From: an uncultured bacterium
GTDB lineage: Bacteria; Edwardsbacteria; AC1; EtOH8
NCBI GenBank assembly: GCA_963780225.1
Contig: CAWAAX010000003.1
Location: forward strand, 24,193 to 88,192
Direction of reading: 5' to 3'
DNA: 64,000 nt
Part shown: positions 5,544-57,623 of the stretch, piece after piece
Layout: every line of letters begins with the position of its first letter
Position numbering within the stretch: the first letter of the stretch is position 1
Notes under the pieces: generated by a model
Told to the model about the DNA's origin: nothing
What the model saw: the letters and a program-made list of their open reading frames with translations, nothing else
The model's database searches: none
Program-made: the position numbers and the translations under genes

Positions 5544-6221
5544 ATGCCCGCAGCTATTGATGCCACAAATATCGGCAGGATATTCAAAGCCCCCAAAGGG
5601 GATCTCAAGGTTTTGTCCGGGCTGACTCTAACCATCGGAAAAGGGGAGACCATAGCCATCACCGGAGCCTCAGGTTCCGGCAAATCAACGCTGTTACAGA
5701 TCCTGGGATGTTTAGACCGGCCCACTTCCGGGCAGCTCACCATAGACGGACGGGAAACCGCCGGCCTTTCGGATCATGAATTGGCGTCGCTGAGGAACAA
5801 AAGCATGGGCTTCGTCTTTCAGTTCCACCATTTGCTGCCGGAATTCTGCGCCTGGGAAAATGTGGCTCTGCCGCTTTTAGTGCGGGGTCAGTCCCTTGGG
5901 TCGGCTGAGGGAACAAGCCGGAAGATACTCCGTGACCTGGGGCTGGAGGAAAGAGCTGAACACAAGCCCAACGAACTTTCGGGCGGAGAGCAACAGCGGG
6001 TGGCCATTGCCCGGGCCATGGCGGCCCGGCCCTTGGTCTTGCTGGCCGATGAGCCCACCGGCAACCTGGACCGGGCCACGGGACAGAACGTGGCTCAGCT
6101 TTTATGGGACCTCAACCAAAACACCGGAATAGCATTGGTAATAGTCACCCACAATCAGGAAATAGCCCAAAGGGCCCAAAGAACATTGGAATTGAAGGAC
6201 GGAAAACTGTGGACCAAATAA
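5544..6221 (+). CDS. ABC transporter ATP-binding protein (LolD/MacB-type)
   Basis: Walker [10 protein letters not shown], signature LSGGEQQR, Walker [12 protein letters not shown]; the ATG directly abuts the stop of the MFS gene. Confidence 0.8.
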
Positions 6222-7887: not shown

Positions 7888-7947
7888 ACCAAAATGATTA
7901 CGATGGCCTGTCTTTCTTAGGGCAATCTGAGATATAACAGGAATCTA

Positions 7948-8213
7948 TTATGTTCTTTTCTTTTTGTGCCGCCGCTTCATTTGAAGGCAAGCTTGCTTAG
8001 CTAAGGGCAGGCTCCAAAAAGAACCAAAAGCTACGCCTTTGGCGGGCCACGCTTACGCTAAAGCTCTCAGCGGGCCGCGTTGCGCTTCTCGTTGATGACG
8101 GGCTTGTCTGAACTCGGGCTTTGGCCAAGCCCTCAAACATGCCAGACAAGCTTTTTCCGCCATCAACTGCGATGCTCACTGATCGTTTTAACGCGACTAC
8201 CGGGTTTAGTAAC
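7948..8213 (+). repeat. Dispersed structured repeat, copy 1 (diverged, with an insertion)
   Basis: Aligns by eye with 45334-45556 and with the reverse complement of 21950-22168. Shared blocks include GGGCTTGTCTGAACTCGGGCTTTGGCCAAGCCCTCAAACA and CAACTGCGATGCTCACTGAT. Confidence 0.75.
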
Positions 8214-8246
8214 CATTGATCTAAGGTAACGGGATAATCGTTAAAT

Positions 8247-19357: not shown

Positions 19358-19434
19358 ATCCGCAGATTACGCAGATATAAAATAAAGGGGTAAATCATAT
19401 AGTTGAATCTGCAAAATCTGTGAAATCTGCGGAT
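19358..19434. repeat. Intergenic inverted repeat built from GCAGAT/ATCTGC words
   Basis: ATCCGCAGATT (19358-19368) is the exact reverse complement of AATCTGCGGAT (19424-19434); the interior holds three tandem AATCTG words. Confidence 0.7.
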
Positions 19435-20771: not shown

Positions 20772-21943
20772 ATCCTTGGATAAAATTCAACATAGACCTC
20801 CGCCCAACCCCGCCGCAATTATGGATGTCGCTAGGCGAGGCCTCATCAAAGTGCGAACATATTGCCGGTGTGCCATTGCGCCCCCAAACAGCCAGGGAAA
20901 TGCATCTGATCTACCTGGCCAAGGGCGTGGCCGCCACTACTGCCATAGAAGGCAATTCCCTGTCGGAAGAGCAGGTCCTTCAGCATATGGATGGCACGCT
21001 TAAGCTGCCGCCGTCAAAGGAATATCTGGCCCAGGAAGTGGAAAATATAATTACGGCCTGCAATCAGATAGGCGAAGGTTTGCACAACGGTGGTGTTGAG
21101 CTTACTCCGGAACGAATAAAAGAATTCAACCGGCAGGTGCTGAATAAACTTACGCTGGAGAAGGATGTTGTGCTGGGGGAGATCCGGACGCACTCGGTGG
21201 TGGTGGGTAATGTTTACCGGGGGGCGCCGGCCGAGGATTGCGGGCATCTGCTGGAACGTTTATGTCAGTGGTTAAACAGCGATGACTTTAAACCTGTAGC
21301 AGGCATGGAGACGGTCTATGCCATCATCAAGGCCGTAGTGGCTCATGTTTACCTGGCCTGGATACATCCTTTCGGCGACGGCAACGGACGCACCGCCCGC
21401 CTGGTGGAATTTCAGATACTATTGTCCGCCGGAGTGCCCACCCCGGCGGCCCATCTGCTGAGCAATCACTATAACCAGACCCGCACCGAATACTACCGCC
21501 AGCTTGATTCGGCCAGCAAGACCGGCGGCGAGATAATTCCTTTCTTGTCGTATGCTGCGCAGGGGTTTGTTGACGGTCTGAGGGAACAGCTGGAACGCAT
21601 CCGAAATCAGCAATGGGATGTTACCTGGGAAAATTACGTCCATGACATGTTTCACAGCAGGATCAGCCGTTCCGATATCCGGCAGAGAAACCTGGTCCTG
21701 GATATTTCCCATTCCCAAAAGCCAGTGCCGCCCCCAAAGATCGCCGAACTTTCGCCCCGGCTGGCCAGGGACTACGCCGGCAAAACATATAAAACGATCC
21801 AACGCGATCTGAATGCCATGGAAAAAATGAACCTGATAGAACGGACAGCAGACGGGGTTAGGGCCAAGAAAGAAACCATACTGGCTTTCCTGCCTTGGAA
21901 GAACATCAGTAATGATCATCCAGCCAGCTCGGAAAACTTGTAG
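20750..21943 (+). CDS. Fic-family protein (class II, auto-inhibited AMPylase type)
   Basis: Active-site motif HPFGDGNGRTAR; N-terminal inhibitory motif TTAIEG, which fits (S/T)xxxE(G/N); C-terminal wHTH-like tail. Confidence 0.9.
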   Translation: MRTYNSTHPWIKFNIDLRPTPPQLWMSLGEASSKCEHIAGVPLRPQTAREMHLIYLAKGVAATTAIEGNSLSEEQVLQHMDGTLKLPPSKEYLAQEVENIITACNQIGEGLHNGGVELTPERIKEFNRQVLNKLTLEKDVVLGEIRTHSVVVGNVYRGAPAEDCGHLLERLCQWLNSDDFKPVAGMETVYAIIKAVVAHVYLAWIHPFGDGNGRTARLVEFQILLSAGVPTPAAHLLSNHYNQTRTEYYRQLDSASKTGGEIIPFLSYAAQGFVDGLREQLERIRNQQWDVTWENYVHDMFHSRISRSDIRQRNLVLDISHSQKPVPPPKIAELSPRLARDYAGKTYKTIQRDLNAMEKMNLIERTADGVRAKKETILAFLPWKNISNDHPASSENL

Positions 21944-21949
21944 ACAATA

Positions 21950-22168
21950 GGCACCAACCCCGGTTGTCGCGTTAAAACGATCAGTGAGCATCGCAGTTGA
22001 CGGCGGTTAAAAGCTTGTCTGCATGTTTGAGGGCTTGGCCAAAGCCCGAGTTCAGACAAGCCCGCCGGCGACGAGAAGCGCAGCGCCCGGAGAGTTTTAA
22101 GCGACGAGCTTTTTTCTTTTTGGTTCTTTTTCTTAGTTGGCGGTACAAAAAAGAAAAAGAACACAATT
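21950..22168 (-). repeat. Dispersed structured repeat, copy 2 (inverted orientation)
   Basis: The reverse complement is near-identical by eye to 45334-45556. Confidence 0.8.
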
Positions 22169-22273
22169 GCGTCTATAGTTACGTTTTCACCAAAATCGCT
22201 ATATTCTTTATACTTTTTCCGAGCAAGATAGATAGACATTACACCAGTAATCTTTAGCTAAAAAGGAGCAGCC

Positions 22274-23293
22274 ATGGAACGCATCGTCCAATTGCTGAAG
22301 GACCTGGAGGCCATCCATTCGCCCTCCGGCTATACCGACGAAGTCACAGTCACATCGCCGAGCTATGCCAGAAGAACGGGATAAAGACCAGGCTCACCAA
22401 CAAGGGCGGCACTTTTGTGCGGGAACCACAATGCCCCCAAGCTGGTGGTATCGGGCCATGTGGATACCCTGGGCCTGATGGTCAGCGGCATCAACAGCGA
22501 CGGCAGCCTGGCCTTCACCAAGATCGGCTCGCCGGTGCTGGCCTCGTTCGAGGGCGAGTACGTCACCATCATCACCTCCGAGGACAAGAAGTTCCGGGGC
22601 ACCCTGCTGTTGAACAACCCGGCGGCCCACGTTAATAAGGAGGCGGACAAGGCAGAGCGCAAAGCCGACAGCATGCACATCCGGCTGGACGCCGAGACCA
22701 GCAAGAAAGAGGAGACCGAGAAGCTGGGGATCCGCACCGGGGATTTCATCTGCTTTGACCCCCGCTTTGAGTACACCGATTCCGGGTTCATCAAGTGCCG
22801 GTTCCTGGACGACAAGGCCGGCTCGGCCGCCATGCTGGATGCCCTGCTGGCGCTGGGTTCCAAGGAGCTGGAAAAACTGCCGGTGACCTTCTTCTTCTCC
22901 AATTACGAGGAGGTGGGCCACGGGGCCTCGGCCGGGGTGCCCCCAAGCGCAACCGAGATGCTGGTGGTGGACATGGGAGTGGTGGGCGAGAAGGTGGACG
23001 GGGTGGAGACGGCGGTCTCCATCTGCGTCAAGGATTCCAACGGGCCATACGACTATGCCATCAGGCAGAAGCTCTCCCGGCTGGCCACGGCCCACGGCAT
23101 TGCCCACCGGCTGGACGTGTTTCCCCTGTACGGCTCGGACGGGAGCGCGGCCCTGGCGGCCGGGCACGATATAAGGGTGGGGCTGATAGGCCCCGGGGTG
23201 AGCGCCAGCCACGGGATGGAGCGGACCCATTTGAAGGGGTTGAACGCGGCCCGGGACCTGCTGATGGCGTATATCAATGATACGTTGAAATAG
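22274..23293 (+). pseudogene. M42-family peptidase with two compensating frameshifts
   Basis: The N-terminus MERIVQLLKDLEAIHSPSGYTDEV reads in the frame of 22274 and stops at 22382-22384. HIAELCQKNGIKTRLTNKGGTFV reads in the adjacent frame. NHNAPKLVVSGHVDTLGLMV onward is back in the first frame and runs to 23293. Confidence 0.8.
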
Positions 23294-25002: not shown

Positions 25003-25160
25003 GCATCGCCCACCGGCTGGAGGAATTTTCCCTGTACGGCAAGGGTGAAGCTGATCGGGCTGGGGTCTCAGCCAGCCACGGGATGGAGCGGACCCATTTG
25101 AAGGGGCTGAACGCGAGCAGGGACCTGCTGATGGCCTATGTGAAAGAGACGTTGAACTAA
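25003..25160 (+). pseudogene. Relic duplicate of the M42 peptidase 3' end
   Basis: The segment translates in frame as HRLEEFSLYG...GVSASHGMERTHLKGLNASRDLLMAYVKETLN*. This parallels 23107-23293 (HRLDVFPLYG...GVSASHGMERTHLKGLNAARDLLMAYINDTLK*) with an internal deletion. Confidence 0.75.
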
Positions 25161-27243: not shown

Positions 27244-27272
27244 TTGTAATTAGGGCTTAAATTATATACAAT
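27244..27272 (+). promoter_or_regulatory. Sigma70-like promoter (TTGTAA-17-TACAAT) for the SET-domain gene
   Basis: TTGTAA at 27244-27249, a 17-nt spacer, TACAAT at 27267-27272; this argues against the track start at 27272. Confidence 0.55.
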
Positions 27273-27313
27273 TGCAGCAACATTCAAACCACTACCAATC
27301 GAAAGCAGTACTG

Positions 27314-44591: not shown

Positions 44592-45296
44592 ATGATAGAA
44601 CTCGTGCACGTCACCAAGACCTTTCAGAACAGCTGGACCGCCCTCAAGGACATCAGTTTTGAACTGGAGAAGGGCGAGTTCGTTTTTCTGATCGGGCCTT
44701 CGGGCTCTGGCAAAAGCACCATCCTTAAGACCATCATGATGGAGATCCTGCCGGACGAGGGGCTGGTGAAGGTGGCGGGCTTCGGCTCGGACTGCATCAA
44801 GGCCAGGGATATCCCCAAACTGCGGCGCAAGCTGGGGGTCATCTTTCAGGACTTCAAACTGTTGCCCGAAAAAACTGTTTACGAAAATGTGGCCTTTGCT
44901 TTGGAAGTAACCGGGACCGCTGTTAAGGCCATCCACAAAAAATCCATGGCGGCCTTGAACGAAGTGGGTATGTCCCACAAAAGGCATTCCTTTCCCTACC
45001 AGCTCTCCGGCGGGGAACAGCAGAAGTCGGCCATCGCCCGGGCCCTGGTCAACGATCCCTTCATCCTTTTAGCCGACGAGCCCACCGGCAACGTGGACCC
45101 GGCCGGGACTTTGGAGATCATTCAGATACTGAAGAACATCAACGCCAAGGGCACGGCGGTGCTGATGGCCACCCACGAGCACGAGCTGGTGAAGAAGATG
45201 CCCCACCGGGTGATAGAGCTGGAGGCCGGGGCCATCATCCGGGACATGCCGGGCAAGAGTCATTACCGCCGGGGCAGCCATATTGAAAACGAGTAG
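44592..45296 (+). CDS. ftsE: Cell-division ABC ATPase FtsE
   Basis: Walker [30 protein letters not shown], FtsE-like N-terminus; no ftsX follows. Confidence 0.85.
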
Positions 45297-45333
45297 CCTG
45301 TATTTATACAGAAAATAGTTTTCGTATCTATTA

Positions 45334-45556
45334 CAATTATGTTCTTTTTCTTTTTTGTACCGCCAACTAAGAAAAAGAACCAAAAAGAAAAAAGCTCGTC
45401 GCAAAATACTATCCGGGCGCTGCGCTTCTCGCTGACGGCGGGCTTGTCTGAACTCGGGCTTTTGCCAAGCCCTCAAACAGGCGCAGACAAGCTTTTAACC
45501 GCCGTCAACTGCGATGCTCACTGATAGTATTTAACGCGACAACCGGGGTTGGCACC
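45334..45556 (+). repeat. Dispersed structured repeat, copy 3 (reference copy)
   Basis: A 12-bp hairpin pairs 45341-45352 with 45369-45380. A long composite stem pairs 45434-45450 with 45484-45506 and encloses the GGGCTT/AAGCCC hairpin. No conserved ORF is shared among the copies. Confidence 0.8.
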
Positions 45557-45620
45557 TTTTGTTCTCCATGCTTCCTGAGTTGATTGGATGATTATTTAAC
45601 AAAATTTAAAGAAGGATATC

Positions 45621-49191: not shown

Positions 49192-49378
49192 AATAAGGTA
49201 ATTGCGGTAATGCTCACGCAATATTTGTGCATAACCGGATAAAATCTGCGTTTTTATAACATCTACTATATTCTTTCTACTTTTCCTGATCAAGTTAGAT
49301 AGTCATTAAGTTTAAAAAGAAACCATTAAAAAACAATCGCTAAAAGACAGTATCCAAAAAGTAAATCAGGGAGGGAAA

Positions 49379-52300
49379 ATGGCAAGATTTAAAATGTTCG
49401 TGATAATGGCTGCTTTATCGGCCATTATCAGCAATGCATCTTGGGCTTTAAATATTGAAAAAGTCGAATACAGGGATTCCTGGGCCAAGCAGGGCATCAG
49501 CATTGATAAAAGCAGCCGGGCCGGCATGGATTTGACTTTTTCCTTAAAGGAGTTTTTCTTTGAAGAAAAAGATGTTGAAGGTGGCAAGGCCGTGGCGGTA
49601 AAAACGGCCGGTTCTCTATTGCCCATAGGGGCGGGATACCCGGATTTGCCGGTCATCAGCCATTATGTGGCACTTCCCAAAGGCGCCACTCCCAAGGTGA
49701 AAATAATTTCATACCGGGAGGAAAAATACAGCGGGATAAACATTGCTCCCTGCATGGAACTGCCTTTTGATACGGACCAAGAAATCAAACCTCTGGCAAA
49801 GAAGACCGAAATTTATGACAAGAACGAATTTTTCCCCAATGATTTTGTCATGCAATCTCCGCTTCAGAAAATGAGGGGTATGGATGTTTTTATTATATCC
49901 TTTTCGCCGTTCAGATACAATCCGGTTACCAAGGATCTGGTAGTCAGAAGGGATATGAAAGTCGAAATCTCTTTCGACGGTGGCACCGGAGAATTTGGGG
50001 ACGATTTATACCGGCATCCCTTATTCGAAGGAGTGCTTAGACAAAATATAATTAATTACGGCTCCATTCAGCCGACTAAATATGTCGAATTGGCTCAAGC
50101 CACCGCTACTGCAAAGGGATCCGAAGAGGTCGAATATATCATCATTGTTCCGGATGACCCCAGTTTTATTGCTTGGGCAGATACCTTAAAGGAATTTCGT
50201 AAAAAGCAGGGGATCAAGACCGGCATTTTTACTATTACCGAGATAGGCGGCAATACTCCGGCGATGGTGGAAGCCTTTATCGACAACGCTTATAACAATT
50301 GGACGATAAAACCCTTGGGCGTGTTGATGTTTTCCGATCTGGAATCCACCAGCAAGGCCTACGGCCTTACCTCCTCAACCCCGATTCCACATCCCAGCTC
50401 CTACCCCGACTATGTGTCCGACAATGTGTTCGGAGATGTTGATATCACCGATGCCGCCACCACTTGGGATAACGGCGGAGCGCCGGAGCTGGTATTTGCC
50501 AGGATGACCGCCCAGACAGCATCCCAGTGTTCCATCATGGTCAAGAAGATCATAAATTATGAATCCCATCCGCCGTCCGGCAGTAGTTTTTACAGTTTGC
50601 CGCTTTCGGCCGCCGGATGGCAGGATGAACGGTGGTTTGGTATGTGCTCCGAGATCGTCCGCGGCTTTCTTAAAAACAAACTGGGAAAGACCACTCAACA
50701 GCAATATGCCTTGGTGGATGCCAATGGCCCGGCAGAAGGCGATCCCTGGTCTACTACCGATCCCAGCGCCGTAGTGGCGGCCTACGGCCCCAGCGGCGAA
50801 GGCTACATTGCCGCCGCCGTGCCGGCTGGAATGGATTGGAGCTCCGGTACTGCTGATGGGGTAGTAAGCGCCGTCAATAACGGCTGTTTTATGATTATGC
50901 ACCGGGATCACGGTAATTATTACGGCTGGGGAGAGCCGGCTTTCACTAGGACAAATATACTCAGCCTAACTAATACCGACCTTACCTTTGTTTTTTCCAT
51001 GAATTGCCAAACAGGTGCATTTCAGTACCCGGACGCAGAAACCTTTTCCGAGAGATTTCATCGCATCCAATACGGAGCGCTGGGCGTGGTTTGCGCCACC
51101 GAAGTATCGTATTCGTTTGTTAACGACGCTTTGATCATCGGCGTGATGGACGGCTTATGGCCAAATTTCAATACCAGCAATAATTATGACATTCCTAATG
51201 CCGGCGCCGGCCAAACCTATGAAAAGTATTCCGAAGACCTACGCCCAGGGTTTGCATTGGCCTCAGGGAAATGGCATTTGATGAGCCAGACCTATACCAA
51301 TCCCGTTATTCCCTTGGCTTACAAGGGATTTACCTGTCAACTCTTTCACCTGTTTGGCGATCCCTTTATGACGTTTTGTTCCCAGATTCCCGATACTTTT
51401 GTGCTGACGTTTTATAGCAGCATACCCTGCGGCAGCCAGGCGTTTTCAGTCAACGTGAAAAATCAAAGCGGGCAGAACGTGCCGGGCGCTTTGATAGGCC
51501 TTTATATGCCGACCAATTCTCCCGAGATCATAACTTCAAATATCGCTGACGAGAACGGCAACATAACGTTCAGCATCAATCCCCAGGTAAGCGGCCCGTT
51601 GTATGTTACCGCCACCAAATCCAATTTTGTGCGCCATGAAACTTATGCCACGGTCAATTCCGGGACGCCGTCAAAGCCCACCTTGGTCAAATTGCTTGAC
51701 GGGGCCAGGGTGCCGGAATTAAAACCGGCAGTATCATTTTATTCTATAGATTCCTTGAAAAACCCGATTGATTACCGCGTTATCTGGGATACCACGGCCA
51801 ATTTTAATTCGCCGGTAAAAGACAGCATAACTACGGCTGCTTTCAGCAGTGGAGAAACCGTTAATTTTATCTTTCCCGTTAACCTGGTTGATGGCAGAAC
51901 GTATTGGTGGAAGGTAAAGGGGCGAGACCCGTCCGGAACCAACCTTTTTGGGTTGGAAAGCGACATCAGGTCATTCACCATAGGAACAGAGCTGCCGGCC
52001 GGTTCTGTCAGCTGGTTCCATGCCAAGGGATATCAATTTGCTTCCGATAATTGCACCGGAGCCGTGACAATCAAAGCAGACAGCGTGATTTTGGCCGAGC
52101 CCTCATCGGGGACAGTGGTGCTATTAAACGAAAACTTTGATGCCGGAACAAGTCTGCCCAACGGATGGAGCAGAAATGAAGTATACAATAATGAATATGA
52201 CTGGACCATAGGTACCAGCGCCAGCATTCTAAGCCAACCACCCAATTACGGAACTTATTATGCCTATGTAAGCTATCCGTCCTCCGGGCCAGGCACAACC

Positions 52301-53317
52301 AGCGATGCCGATGAATTGATTACGCCGCTTGTGTCTTTAGTAAATGGGGCATCAGGCTTGGTGTTAAAATATGGCATAGGATACAATTATGCTCAATTTG
52401 GCGATAGCCTAAGCACTTGGGTAAGATTTTCCCAGGGAGAATCGTGGCAGGTGGTATCCAGTAGAACTTCAAGTCAAACCAGTGCGACAGATTCCATTAA
52501 TTTAACCGGCTATTTGCCAAAAGACAGCGTTCAGGTTATGTGGCGTTTTTCATCTCCCGGCGGAAGAGCTGGAGAATATGTTGCTATAGATAATGTGCTG
52601 ATCAGCTGTGATTATTCTCTTCCCAATACGGACGGATCCCTGATAACCAGCCCGGTTGTGTATAGTTCCTTAGCAAACTCCACCGTAACCGACAGGGTTT
52701 CATATGGCTGGGGCAAGGTTATGTGGCACAAAAAACTTATCTCCGATTCCATAGGGGTCAGGATCGATTATCTTAATAACAATGTTTGGGCGCCAGTACC
52801 AGAGGCTGTATTGCCGGGAAATTCCGAAGGCTATTGGGATATGAATTCCGCAACAGACAGCTTAAGCTTAAACGGCCTGGATACGTTGGTATACGATACA
52901 TTGAGAGCCGTGGTGCTGATGTGCCGTCCTTTAAGTAAATCAAGCGCCAATCCGGTCCTGATTGACATTGAAATGGGCAGACCCGGATATATGGCGGCTA
53001 CCGGCGTTGTAACATCCGACAATGACAGAACCACACCCAAAATATTCAGCTTGGGACAAGCCTATCCCAATCCCGCTTCCGGAAAGGTTAGCATCAAATA
53101 TACACTTAGCACCACGGGCCAAACCAGCGTGAAGGTTTATAACATTTTGGGTGCAGAGGTCAAAACCCTGGTCAATTCCAGGCAGGATGCCAATGCCTAT
53201 ATGGTAACCTGGGACGGCAAAGACAATAACGGGAGGGCAGTGGCCAACGGCGTCTATTTCTATAAATTAGTATCGGGAGAATTTACCGCCACTAAAAAAA
53301 TGATGCTGTTGAAATGA
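49379..53317 (+). CDS. Gingipain-like C25-family cysteine peptidase with a T9SS C-terminal sorting domain
   Basis: EYIIIVPDD...WADTLKEFRKKQGIKTGI, catalytic-type HRDHGNYYGW and SMNCQTGAF, and the C-terminal YPNPASGKVSIKY...GVYFYKL...MMLLK sorting domain. Confidence 0.75.
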   Translation: MARFKMFVIMAALSAIISNASWALNIEKVEYRDSWAKQGISIDKSSRAGMDLTFSLKEFFFEEKDVEGGKAVAVKTAGSLLPIGAGYPDLPVISHYVALPKGATPKVKIISYREEKYSGINIAPCMELPFDTDQEIKPLAKKTEIYDKNEFFPNDFVMQSPLQKMRGMDVFIISFSPFRYNPVTKDLVVRRDMKVEISFDGGTGEFGDDLYRHPLFEGVLRQNIINYGSIQPTKYVELAQATATAKGSEEVEYIIIVPDDPSFIAWADTLKEFRKKQGIKTGIFTITEIGGNTPAMVEAFIDNAYNNWTIKPLGVLMFSDLESTSKAYGLTSSTPIPHPSSYPDYVSDNVFGDVDITDAATTWDNGGAPELVFARMTAQTASQCSIMVKKIINYESHPPSGSSFYSLPLSAAGWQDERWFGMCSEIVRGFLKNKLGKTTQQQYALVDANGPAEGDPWSTTDPSAVVAAYGPSGEGYIAAAVPAGMDWSSGTADGVVSAVNNGCFMIMHRDHGNYYGWGEPAFTRTNILSLTNTDLTFVFSMNCQTGAFQYPDAETFSERFHRIQYGALGVVCATEVSYSFVNDALIIGVMDGLWPNFNTSNNYDIPNAGAGQTYEKYSEDLRPGFALASGKWHLMSQTYTNPVIPLAYKGFTCQLFHLFGDPFMTFCSQIPDTFVLTFYSSIPCGSQAFSVNVKNQSGQNVPGALIGLYMPTNSPEIITSNIADENGNITFSINPQVSGPLYVTATKSNFVRHETYATVNSGTPSKPTLVKLLDGARVPELKPAVSFYSIDSLKNPIDYRVIWDTTANFNSPVKDSITTAAFSSGETVNFIFPVNLVDGRTYWWKVKGRDPSGTNLFGLESDIRSFTIGTELPAGSVSWFHAKGYQFASDNCTGAVTIKADSVILAEPSSGTVVLLNENFDAGTSLPNGWSRNEVYNNEYDWTIGTSASILSQPPNYGTYYAYVSYPSSGPGTTSDADELITPLVSLVNGASGLVLKYGIGYNYAQFGDSLSTWVRFSQGESWQVVSSRTSSQTSATDSINLTGYLPKDSVQVMWRFSSPGGRAGEYVAIDNVLISCDYSLPNTDGSLITSPVVYSSLANSTVTDRVSYGWGKVMWHKKLISDSIGVRIDYLNNNVWAPVPEAVLPGNSEGYWDMNSATDSLSLNGLDTLVYDTLRAVVLMCRPLSKSSANPVLIDIEMGRPGYMAATGVVTSDNDRTTPKIFSLGQAYPNPASGKVSIKYTLSTTGQTSVKVYNILGAEVKTLVNSRQDANAYMVTWDGKDNNGRAVANGVYFYKLVSGEFTATKKMMLLK

Positions 53318-53405
53318 ACCCATTTGAAAGGGCTTTCAAATAGGCCGTTCTTAAAAAGCGACAGTTTCACTAATAGTTAAACACGGCCTTTGCACTAATC
53401 AAAAA

Positions 53406-56261: not shown

Positions 56262-57623
56262 ATGAAAAAAATATTTATTTTTACCATTCTTTCGGTTCTG
56301 ATGCTGATATCTTTTGCCGCCGCCCAGTCTGGCTGGCAGCCGCCCCGGCCCCAAAGGGTGACGCTGGGGAACGGCTTGGTTTTACTGGTGGTTCCAAAGA
56401 TCAGCCTGCCGTTGGTCACCGTAAGCGCCATGGTCAAAGGCGGCAGCGCCTCCGATCCCAAGGATCTAAGCGGGCTGGCGAATTTTACCGCCGGGATGCT
56501 TTCCAAGGGGACCACATCGCGCACCGCCCAGCAGATAGCCCAGAGTTTCGACCAGTCCGGGGCCCAGTTCTCAGTTAACTGCGATAACGACGCCTCGTAT
56601 TTTTCCCTGACCTGCCTGAGCCAGGATCTGGATAAACTGCTGCCGGTCTTTATGGATCTGCTGCAAAATCCCAGGATGGATTCCTCGGAAGCCGAAAGAC
56701 TGAGGGATCAATTGATCACTTCCATTCAGGCACAGCAAGACCAGCCCCAGACCGTCAGCCAATTGGCTTATGAAAAATTGCTGTACGGCCAGCACCAATA
56801 CAACCACCCGGTGGAAGGGGAAGAAGCCACGGTCAGCGCCATAAGATCAGGGGACCTGATCTCCTACCACAAAAAATATTTTGTTCCCAATAATGCCGTG
56901 ATCGCCATAGTGGGAGATGTGCATCCGGCCAAAATCGCAGGGCTCTTAAAAAAGCTGACCAAAACCTGGTTTAAATCAGAAACTCCGTCCACGGTCTTTG
57001 GCCAGATCCCCAAAATAGCCGGTCCGGGCCTGCAGATGATCCACCGGCCCATCACTCAGGCCTATGTGGTGCTGGGCTTTCTGGGCCCCAAACGTCTTGA
57101 TCCCGATTATCAGGCGGCCCGGGTAATGAATTATATTTTGGGCGGCGGAGGATTTGTTTCCCGCTTGGTTGCTAAGATCAGGGTGCAGCAGGGACTGGCT
57201 TACGATGTTTATTCTTATTTTTCTCCCCGGTTGGACTACGGACCATACACCTTTACCGTTCAGACCAAATGCCAGACCGCTGATACCGCCATTAAAACCA
57301 TGCTGGTGGAAATGGATCGTATCAAAAAAGAACCGGTTTCTGACCAGGAGTTGTCGGAGGCCAAAGCCTATTTCCGGGGCAGCTATCCCTTCCGCTATGA
57401 GACAAACGGACAGATCGCAGGACAAATATTGGGGGCCGAACTTTACGGGTTAAGCTCCGACCAGGTCATAAAGGATATGGAAGCGATACAAAAGATTACC
57501 AAAGAGGATCTTCTACAGGCCGCCCAACGTCTATTGAAGCCCCAGAACTACATTGTTACTATGGCCACAGATACGTCTCTGACCAAAATTAACGTTCCGG
57601 GATTGGCGATAGAAAAAAAATAG
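56262..57623 (+). CDS. M16-family peptidase, non-catalytic partner
   Basis: M16 fold blocks but no HxxEH (ANFTAGMLSKGT sits at the equivalent position); it starts 1 nt after the partner's stop. Confidence 0.8.
   Translation: MKKIFIFTILSVLMLISFAAAQSGWQPPRPQRVTLGNGLVLLVVPKISLPLVTVSAMVKGGSASDPKDLSGLANFTAGMLSKGTTSRTAQQIAQSFDQSGAQFSVNCDNDASYFSLTCLSQDLDKLLPVFMDLLQNPRMDSSEAERLRDQLITSIQAQQDQPQTVSQLAYEKLLYGQHQYNHPVEGEEATVSAIRSGDLISYHKKYFVPNNAVIAIVGDVHPAKIAGLLKKLTKTWFKSETPSTVFGQIPKIAGPGLQMIHRPITQAYVVLGFLGPKRLDPDYQAARVMNYILGGGGFVSRLVAKIRVQQGLAYDVYSYFSPRLDYGPYTFTVQTKCQTADTAIKTMLVEMDRIKKEPVSDQELSEAKAYFRGSYPFRYETNGQIAGQILGAELYGLSSDQVIKDMEAIQKITKEDLLQAAQRLLKPQNYIVTMATDTSLTKINVPGLAIEKK

Follow-up and report, generated by a model that had tools for sequence, protein, structure and literature searches.

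Bacterial miniature inverted-repeat transposable elements (MITEs), among them Correia/NEMIS of Neisseria, Nezha and Chunjie of cyanobacteria and Geobacter, and MaeMITE of Microcystis, consist of terminal inverted repeats (TIRs) around a core without a transposase and are accompanied by target-site duplications (TSDs) (PMC3184786). They are intergenic and multicopy with a long stem-loop fold, and for Correia elements presence and absence have been compared between related strains (PMC3184786). ERIC and REP-BIME sequences of enterobacteria are imperfect palindromes in intergenic DNA that is transcribed; they have size variants formed by insertions at fixed internal sites, lie near gene 3' ends and terminators, and have been proposed to act at the RNA level on mRNA stability. 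Here we examined a stretch of 64,000 nucleotides (the window) from an uncultured bacterium (GTDB lineage Bacteria; Edwardsbacteria; AC1; EtOH8; assembly GCA_963780225.1, contig CAWAAX010000003.1, positions 24,193 to 88,192 of the forward strand), in which a sequence-only reading had seen a ~220-nt structured repeat, present three times, and had taken it for a novel free-standing RNA without transposon features. This repeat is the conserved base-paired middle of a ~330-bp miniature transposon, and the element as a whole is a bacterial MITE, a non-autonomous DNA transposon, in an uncultured lineage. It has in common with the described MITEs the TIRs around a transposase-less core, the TSDs, the intergenic and multicopy occurrence, the long stem-loop fold and the presence or absence between related strains; with ERIC and REP-BIME it shares imperfect palindromy, intergenic position, size variants from insertions at fixed internal sites and proximity to gene 3' ends and terminators, and by analogy with them an RNA-level role may be plausible.

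Boundaries, target sites and mobility of the element

Using nhmmer and a covariance-model scan with filters off, we found exactly three copies in the 64 kb, at the positions proposed, and nothing further. Copies 2 and 3, which had been read as matching at almost every position, are indeed close, although their identity is ~90-93% rather than near-total. The ~220-nt extent proved too short, as alignment of the copies with their flanks showed homology continuing ~80 nt upstream and ~46 nt downstream. Across the window and 91 related loci (541 kb in total; the related loci carry L numbers), the full-length element spans ~320-470 bp and is formed of a ~80-nt left module, a ~200-nt core and a ~46-nt right module, with an identical pair of end points in 22 full-length copies and consistent ends seen in 20-30 copies by blastn and nhmmer.

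The sequence-only reading had reported neither terminal inverted repeats nor a target duplication, and both statements are contradicted here; the terminal repeats had been missed because its coordinates clipped the element. The outer extensions form an imperfect TIR of ~27-40 bp (AATGNCTATCTAACTTGCTCAGGAAAA / its complement), in which the outer ~27 nt are mutually inverted (left end, AATGACTATCTAACTTGCTCAGGAAAAG; complement of the right end, AATGATTATCCAATTAGCTCAGGAAAC). A repeat finder returned arms of 41 nt with 71% complementarity in copy 2, and over 26 end positions in 28 full-length copies 75% of cells were complementary, compared with 29-47% when the partner was slid. Directly outside these ends lie 9-bp direct repeats, with a best flank match of at least 8/9 in 17 of the 29 full-length copies and of 9/9 in six (exact examples being ATACAATTA, TTTTCAGAA and TTCATATTA), whereas shuffled pairings of left and right flanks from different copies reached at least 8/9 in 181 of 5581 cases (3%). 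A+T makes up 85% of the duplicated 9-mers, compared with 46% of the window, and insertion targets are A+T-rich intergenic DNA, frequently beside terminators.

Parts of the window have syntenic counterparts, 80-95% identical, in nine metagenome loci, and two sites that are empty in the window are occupied in these relatives (L047 and L073, see the list below), with L072 carrying a truncated element at the counterpart of window 57615. The filled orthologous sites hold the duplicated 9-mer and the empty ones a single copy of it; these differences are due to transposition, and the element has moved recently. Relatives also have copies near window 34.9 kb and 53.8 kb, where the window has none.

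Copy number is high throughout the lineage: at least 10 copies were counted in the metagenome-assembled genome (MAG) UBP2_UBA5202 (motif scan, one genome per species) and at least 80 loci in metagenome contigs (second motif scan), many of which end inside the element, while nhmmer found 95 cores in the 541 kb, and the density is roughly one copy per 10-20 kb. Neighbouring genes are unrelated and differ from copy to copy. No match to the element was found among plasmids and phages (blastn in "distant" mode) or in two scans of viral contigs, which used a left-module motif and a core motif respectively. Closely spaced copies also occur: L088:838-1305 holds a full copy and, 45 nt beyond it, a core truncated at its 5' end, L016 has two copies in the same orientation 3.6 kb apart, and L055 and L075 have tandem or closely spaced copies as well.

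Following the definition of a bacterial MITE in Delihas 2011 (PMC3184786), we assign the element to this class because of its TIRs, TSDs, small size, lack of a conserved open reading frame (ORF), high copy number and empty sites, and taken alone this identity is held with great confidence. It does not match a described MITE and is a new family. The proposal of a free-standing RNA is not supported, as every testable MITE feature was found, a MITE being the very outcome which the sequence-only reading had named as telling against a novel RNA. In the window the copies, their modules and the empty sites are located as follows.

7902..8242, plus strand: copy 1, decayed and rearranged, at a locus orthologous to L090 and L026; degenerate left module 7902-7953, core 7954-8206 and degenerate right module 8207-8242 by nhmmer and covariance model (135.9 bits)
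21912..22240, minus strand: copy 2, ~329 nt, the sole full-length element in the window; ends from blastn and nhmmer
22241..22249, minus strand: upstream TSD of copy 2, TACTGGTGT, an 8/9 match to the downstream TACTGATGT
22163..22240, minus strand: left module of copy 2 (nhmmer E = 1.3e-15), beginning with the left TIR AATGTCTATCTATCTTGCTCGGAAAAAG
21956..22161, minus strand: core of copy 2, with 5' hairpin, A-rich linker and rod P1-P6 (nhmmer E = 2.4e-73; 235.5 bits)
21912..21955, minus strand: right module of copy 2 (nhmmer), closing with the right TIR ...TTTTCCGAGCTGGCTGGATGATCAT(T)
21903..21911, minus strand: downstream TSD of copy 2, TACTGATGT; boundary +/-1 nt, the element end being CAT(T)
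27266..27273, no strand: empty site with a single ATACAATT, where L047 has ATACAATTA-element-ATACAATTA
45334..45597, plus strand: copy 3, with core 45342-45550 and right module 45551-45597, without a left module (238.5 bits)
49209..49309, minus strand: solitary left module at 49230-49309 with no core behind it (nhmmer E = 2.1e-16)
57615..57623, no strand: empty site; a terminator-like hairpin directly follows the single AAAAAATAG, and L073 has AAAAAATAG-element-AATAATAG in front of that same hairpin

The left module of copy 2 terminates in a conserved (A/G)TG directly before the core. Upstream of copy 3 the DNA is flank orthologous to that of L024, which ruled out a degenerate left module there. 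This site (45295-45620) and L024:1191-1560 carry the element in opposite orientations between genes for an ABC ATPase and a 51-aa membrane protein, a difference for which independent insertions or inversion in place would be candidate causes. The other flanking genes are an MFS/ABC operon and an M3 peptidase for copy 1, and a Fic protein and an M42 peptidase for copy 2. A 111-nt stretch that is 73% similar between 5967-6077 and 44994-45104 does not belong to the element: it derives from paralogous genes for ABC-transporter ATPases which by chance precede copies 1 and 3. The solitary left module may be a core-less mini derivative, given that AATGCTCACGCAAT at 49209-49222 resembles a right end; no recognisable target duplication was found around it. 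It sits at the left edge of a 4.2-kb segment (49197-53401) that is absent from the syntenic locus L063 and encodes a C25 (gingipain-like) peptidase of 1312 aa that bears a sorting tail for type IX secretion, and this gene was rejected as a transposase on account of that identity.

Fold and covariation of the core

The stems listed in the sequence-only reading are real, both in the sequence and in the minimum-free-energy fold, namely a 12-bp polypyrimidine/polypurine hairpin, a long stem GACGGCGG-GCTTGTCTG / CAGACAAGC...CCGCCGTC, an inner GGGCTT/AAGCCC hairpin and a conserved 3' tail. Compared with shuffled controls, copy 3 folds with z = -4.8 on the plus strand and z = -5.5 on the minus strand. 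The core is G+C-rich and comprises a 5' hairpin (P0), an A-rich linker and a long irregular rod, in which P1 is GUCGC/GCGAC, P2 varies, P3 and P4 contain many G-U pairs, P5 is ~20 bp with a bulge, and P6 is the apical hairpin. In copy 3, all on the plus strand, these lie as follows.

45341..45380: 5' hairpin P0, GTTCTTTTTCTT / AAGAAAAAGAAC, from sequence and fold
45380-45394: purine linker CCAAAAAGAAAAAAG after P0, its run lengths mirroring the purine arm
45398..45540: rod, from the fold, with covariation in P2 and P5
45398-45402 / 45536-45540: helix P1, from the fold
45404-45413 / 45523-45532: helix P2, from fold and covariation
45431-45450 / 45484-45492 and 45499-45509: helix P5, from fold and covariation
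45456-45461 / 45467-45472: helix P6, from the fold

Optional hairpins are added to this plan at fixed points, in the form of a 31-nt module and two alternative nested modules of ~30-34 nt closed by a UUCG loop, and further optional extensions of the core include an expanded P0 tip. Copy 1 has an expanded 5' hairpin and the 31-nt module, lacks the 5' strands of P1 and P2, and aligns to the covariance model only from position 53 on.

Covariation was assessed on 29 short-form copies with a hand-built structure, using shuffle and slid-partner controls in a test that is not tree-aware; RNAalifold on a gappy MAFFT alignment of 75 sequences had recovered structure fragments only and no covariation, and the short-form alignment was used instead. 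In these copies 92% of cells pair, and 29 cells carry double changes, compared with 9.9 +/- 4.2 in shuffles (none of 500 shuffles reached 29) and with 0-4 when partners were slid by 1-3 columns. The stems are consequently maintained by compensatory changes, the point on which the proposal of a structured RNA had depended. The covariation is located in P2 and P5: P2 occurs in three self-complementary versions (AAAUACUAUC/GAUAGUAUUU, AAGAACCAUC/GAUGGUUCUU and UUAAAAC/GUUUUAA), and the P5 pair 408/478 is U-A in 37 copies and C-G in 28. Compensation is seen in P0 too, where L017 and L053 have GUCC/GGAC and L035 and L082 have CUUUGC/GCAAAG. The same test applied to the TIR arms gave no excess covariation: the score was 0.118, while shuffles scored 0.115 and 173 of 500 reached the observed value.

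A second regularity was observed in the 5' domain, where the pyrimidine arm follows the pattern T(a)-C-T(b) and the linker beyond the hairpin the pattern A(e)-G-A(f). In all 58 parsed copies a = e and b = f, with run-length classes 5,6 (29 copies), 4,5 (28) and 5,5 (one), and the linker is therefore a mirror repeat of the purine arm. One further copy, L025, could not be parsed and when read by eye violates the rule. With two or three independent run-length classes, this arrangement is a hint that the 5' domain could be compatible with an intramolecular triple helix, of the purine motif on the forward strand and of the U.A-U type on the reverse.

As had been stated before, the element belongs to no recognised RNA family: Rfam 15 gave no match for the whole window at gathering thresholds, and in a lenient scan of copy 3 (E up to 10) the best hits had E values of 0.6 or worse, all on the low-complexity hairpin.

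Core and ends also differ in conservation. Among 69 complete cores mean pairwise identity was 0.90 in the core, compared with 0.53 in the 80 nt upstream and 0.57 in the 48 nt downstream. With covariation in the core and none in the ends, the ends behave like protein-recognition sites that decay after insertion, and the core is like a strand whose pairing matters. We consider it probable, from this pattern of substitutions, that the core fold is under selection.

Proposed transposition in trans, gene conversion and competing explanations

In the mechanism that we propose, a DDE-type transposase encoded elsewhere would bind both ends and move the element in trans, with the core carried as a ~200-nt passenger whose folded single strand would be under selection. 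That strand would most likely be RNA made by co-transcription with neighbouring genes and would influence how transcripts are processed or how stable they are, in the manner of ERIC, Correia and REP elements, while gene conversion between copies would add to the homogeneity of the core.

For the transposase the best lead is an enzyme of the IS1 family, which is suggested by the 9-bp TSD, the A+T-rich targets and an end match. When the ends of IS1A, taken from E. coli K-12 NC_000913, were aligned to those of the element, the terminal AATGACTATCTAACTT matched AATGAC--TCCAACTT with 13/14 identities, one 2-nt gap and the same distance from the tip. IS1 makes 9-bp duplications and prefers A+T-rich targets; other elements making 9-bp duplications are IS4/IS10, IS903 and IS256 (8-9 bp). 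Membership of the IS1 family is a lead only, since the ends lack the GGT tip and a 9-bp duplication is not peculiar to IS1.

Several results weigh against our interpretation. The GGT tip of IS1 ends is absent from the element and the likeness stops after ~16 nt. No autonomous partner with the same ends was found in the window or the 91 related loci, tblastn with IS1 InsA and InsB on the 541 kb gave chance matches only, and no multicopy transposase-like ORF was detected when ORFs of at least 180 aa from the same DNA were clustered all-against-all, the clusters being ABC ATPases, sigma factors and orthologues only. The end modules are both recognisable in 31 of the 69 cores and neither in 18, the others having one only, and copy 3 and its L024 counterpart occupy the same site in opposite orientations, both without a left module; a simple cut-and-paste history fits neither observation. 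In consensus scans the element contained neither a sigma-70-type promoter nor an intrinsic terminator in the forward sense, although the organism may use other promoters. The strand signals conflict, in that mispairs in the covariation-supported helix P5a/b are of the A-C type in 54 cases and of the G-U type in six, the former corresponding to G-U wobbles on the reverse strand and favouring it, whereas P3 and P4 depend on four conserved G-U pairs present on the forward strand only. Furthermore, the copies had been gathered by exact core motifs, so the sample is skewed to intact cores and its scope excludes diverged ones, and at the locus of copy 1, which is shared by the window, L090 and L026, the flanks are ~79% identical and the 3' 130 nt of the core ~98% identical while the sets of 5' modules are all different. 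The latter pattern is a sign of gene conversion, and by this process much of the core conservation could have arisen without any function.

Other parts of the transposase search gave the same picture as the sequence-only reading, which had seen no such gene nearby: a Pfam scan of the genes flanking all three copies, and of several other large ORFs in the window, identified none. As blastn-short was too insensitive for the ends, module profiles were searched with nhmmer instead, and a fuzzy search for extra termini bracketing a transposase returned two stray ends only.

The last two points against our interpretation also carry its strongest rival, namely that the element is a MITE with a functionless core, kept uniform by gene conversion among hundreds of copies and by sampling of intact cores, with a structure that is incidental quasi-palindromy and apparent compensatory changes that stem from arm-to-arm templated correction. 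Exchange between copies is visible beyond the three 5' architectures at the copy-1 locus: L019 and L057, which are one locus, are told apart by a nested 34-nt module, in L025, which looks recombinant, a hairpin of the long class is joined to a linker of the short class, and copy 1 retains a near-perfect 3' core despite having lost the 5' strands of P1 and P2. Concerted evolution therefore contributes to the conservation, and collection by exact motifs does inflate it. However, the region of each search motif is nearly invariant in the copies collected with the other motif, and loops are as invariant as stems. Three pairs of P2 change jointly and remain complementary across arms ~120 nt apart, the slid-partner controls, which preserve relatedness, gave 0-4 double changes against 29, and the equally palindromic TIR arms show no such effect; gene conversion does not easily account for such complementary triple changes, or for the exempt ends. 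We regard a functionless core as possible and somewhat unlikely.

In a more far-reaching form of the reading that we prefer, the MITE would carry a functional ~200-nt RNA, maybe on the strand opposite to that folded in the sequence-only reading, with its rod kept by compensatory evolution and its 5' domain forming a triple helix from two mirror-related U-rich tracts and one A-rich tract of co-varying run lengths. It would spread by hitch-hiking and serve the transcripts around it as a mobile RNA-stabilising or RNA-processing signal, making it a bacterial equivalent of the triple-helix stability elements in transposon RNAs of eukaryotes. This is speculative, and we think it distinctly unlikely.

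The explanation implied by the sequence-only reading, that these are chromosomal genes for a novel structured small or cis-regulatory RNA, spread by ordinary duplication and immobile, gains from the covariation in the structure, the lack of an Rfam match, the terminators that follow several copies and a weak promoter-like TTGCTC-N17-TATAG(T/C) in the left module, read from the alignment and directed toward the core. As the sole explanation it is contradicted by the TIRs, 9-bp TSDs and empty sites in relatives, which show transposition. The forward promoter candidate in the left module fell below the threshold of the sigma-70 scan, and a sigma-54 promoter at the 3' TGGCAC was rejected, its spacing being wrong and the motif not kept in copy 1. 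The one outward promoter-like site found by consensus scan in the left module of copy 2 is aimed at the M42 peptidase gene. The neighbours are unrelated and orientation relative to them is not fixed; between co-directional neighbours the element is antisense in 26 cases and sense in 12, by crude longest-ORF calls. This leaves immobile RNA genes a very improbable account.

Scarcely any weight falls on a relative of the RNA-guided elements, whether an IS200/IS605-type element with the omega-RNA of TnpB/IscB or an IS110/IS1111 end with a bridge or seek RNA, even though the core is a structured non-coding sequence of ~200 nt with a sharply conserved 3' part and no adjoining protein gene. Terminal inverted repeats and target duplications are both lacking in IS200/IS605 elements and both present here. 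Neither an omega-RNA nor a bridge-RNA family appeared in the lenient Rfam scan, nor any family of Rfam 15 at gathering scores, no multicopy ORF resembling TnpB, IscB or an IS110 recombinase was found in the 541 kb, and what lies 3' of the core is the conserved right module and not a variable guide.

The element was also correctly judged to be non-coding, with the reading frame broken in about half of 14 family members and ORFs without a Pfam match, but the 61-aa ORFs of copies 2 and 3, described as sharing only their last 13 residues, in fact share the first ~47 residues (the copy 3 ORF and the copy 2 frame). Type I toxin-antitoxin loci are multicopy with heavily folded mRNAs, and an ATG or GTG stands at the junction of left module and core in most copies, yet a small-protein or toxin-antitoxin-like locus, in which the core ATG would open a short hydrophobic/basic peptide (MFFFFFVPPTKKK...) with the fold controlling its translation, is the least credible account of all, as frame and length differ between classes (MFFFFFVPPTKKKNQKEK... 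against MFFSFCTAKQKRTKRK...), several copies have early stops, no Shine-Dalgarno sequence is visible upstream in the alignments, no Pfam match was obtained, and the "codons" are a hairpin arm whose run lengths co-vary with non-coding tracts. The element is thus not a member of an Rfam family, not a guide-RNA element of the IS200/IS605 type and not a small-ORF locus.

Neighbouring sequences, significance and comparison with known systems

Two more short intergenic repeats recur in these loci, namely AATCATGT(W)AATCCTGTC and units of AATCTGCG in tandem that end in GGATAG, and they often lie directly past the element on its right side. They form 32 clusters in the 541 kb, occur in L002, L003, L010, L029, L045, L049, L051, L084, L088 and others, and include an inverted pair between two genes at window 19376-19416. 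In the region of copy 2, the M42 peptidase gene has its 3' end repeated directly over 98 nt at 86% identity (23195-23292 and 25062-25159), and the two repeats bracket a low-G+C (~45%) 1.9-kb stretch that encodes a 306-aa protein without a Pfam match and a DUF5131 protein; this stretch has the look of a small integrated cassette whose attachment sites were duplicated. The M42 peptidase gene beside copy 2 (22274-22480, plus strand) is interrupted in frame by a stop at codon 37, past a plausible N-terminus (MERIVQLLKDLEAIH...), and is either a pseudogene or affected by an assembly error. Finally, L001:6476-7138 (CAVWDY010000018.1) is a 665-nt patch, 97% identical to window 21752-22409, within an unrelated alphaproteobacterial MAG contig. 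It consists of copy 2 with ~160 nt of each flanking gene, differs from the window by 1-3-nt indels among other changes, and is probably an assembly chimera.

At ~330 bp per copy and one copy per 10-20 kb, the element accounts for an appreciable part of this lineage's intergenic DNA. Its copies break metagenome assemblies and spawn spurious ORF calls of 61-135 aa, and at the same time they supply dated, strain-level insertion markers for UBP2, an uncultured phylum-level lineage. The element is a clean case of a MITE whose passenger core is more constrained than the ends that move it. If the core acts as an RNA, it would show a structured regulatory module copied genome-wide by a transposon, and if its conservation is due to gene conversion only, it would be a warning for covariation-based RNA discovery in repeat families.

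Among known systems, IS1 shares with the element the 9-bp duplication and A+T-rich targets, though no IS1-type transposase was found in the 541 kb. A looser likeness is to the ENE-type triple-helix stability elements of eukaryotic transposon and viral transcripts, in that the reverse strand here shows two mirror-related U-rich tracts and a matching A-rich tract, the composition needed for U.A-U major-groove triples. Unlike those elements, it lacks a U-rich internal loop clamping a 3' A-tail, and no triple-helix stability element is known from bacterial MITEs. Compared with ERIC and REP-BIME, the element is longer (~330 bp against 127 bp or ~35 bp) and has clear 9-bp duplications and recent insertion polymorphism. 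Its 9-bp TSD also differs from the TA of Correia and ERIC-type elements. It has no sequence similarity to the described MITEs by blastn against plasmids and phages, and unlike them it has a core that is better conserved than its ends and that carries compensatory changes, built as a multi-helix fold with optional hairpin modules instead of a simple hairpin formed from the TIR ends.

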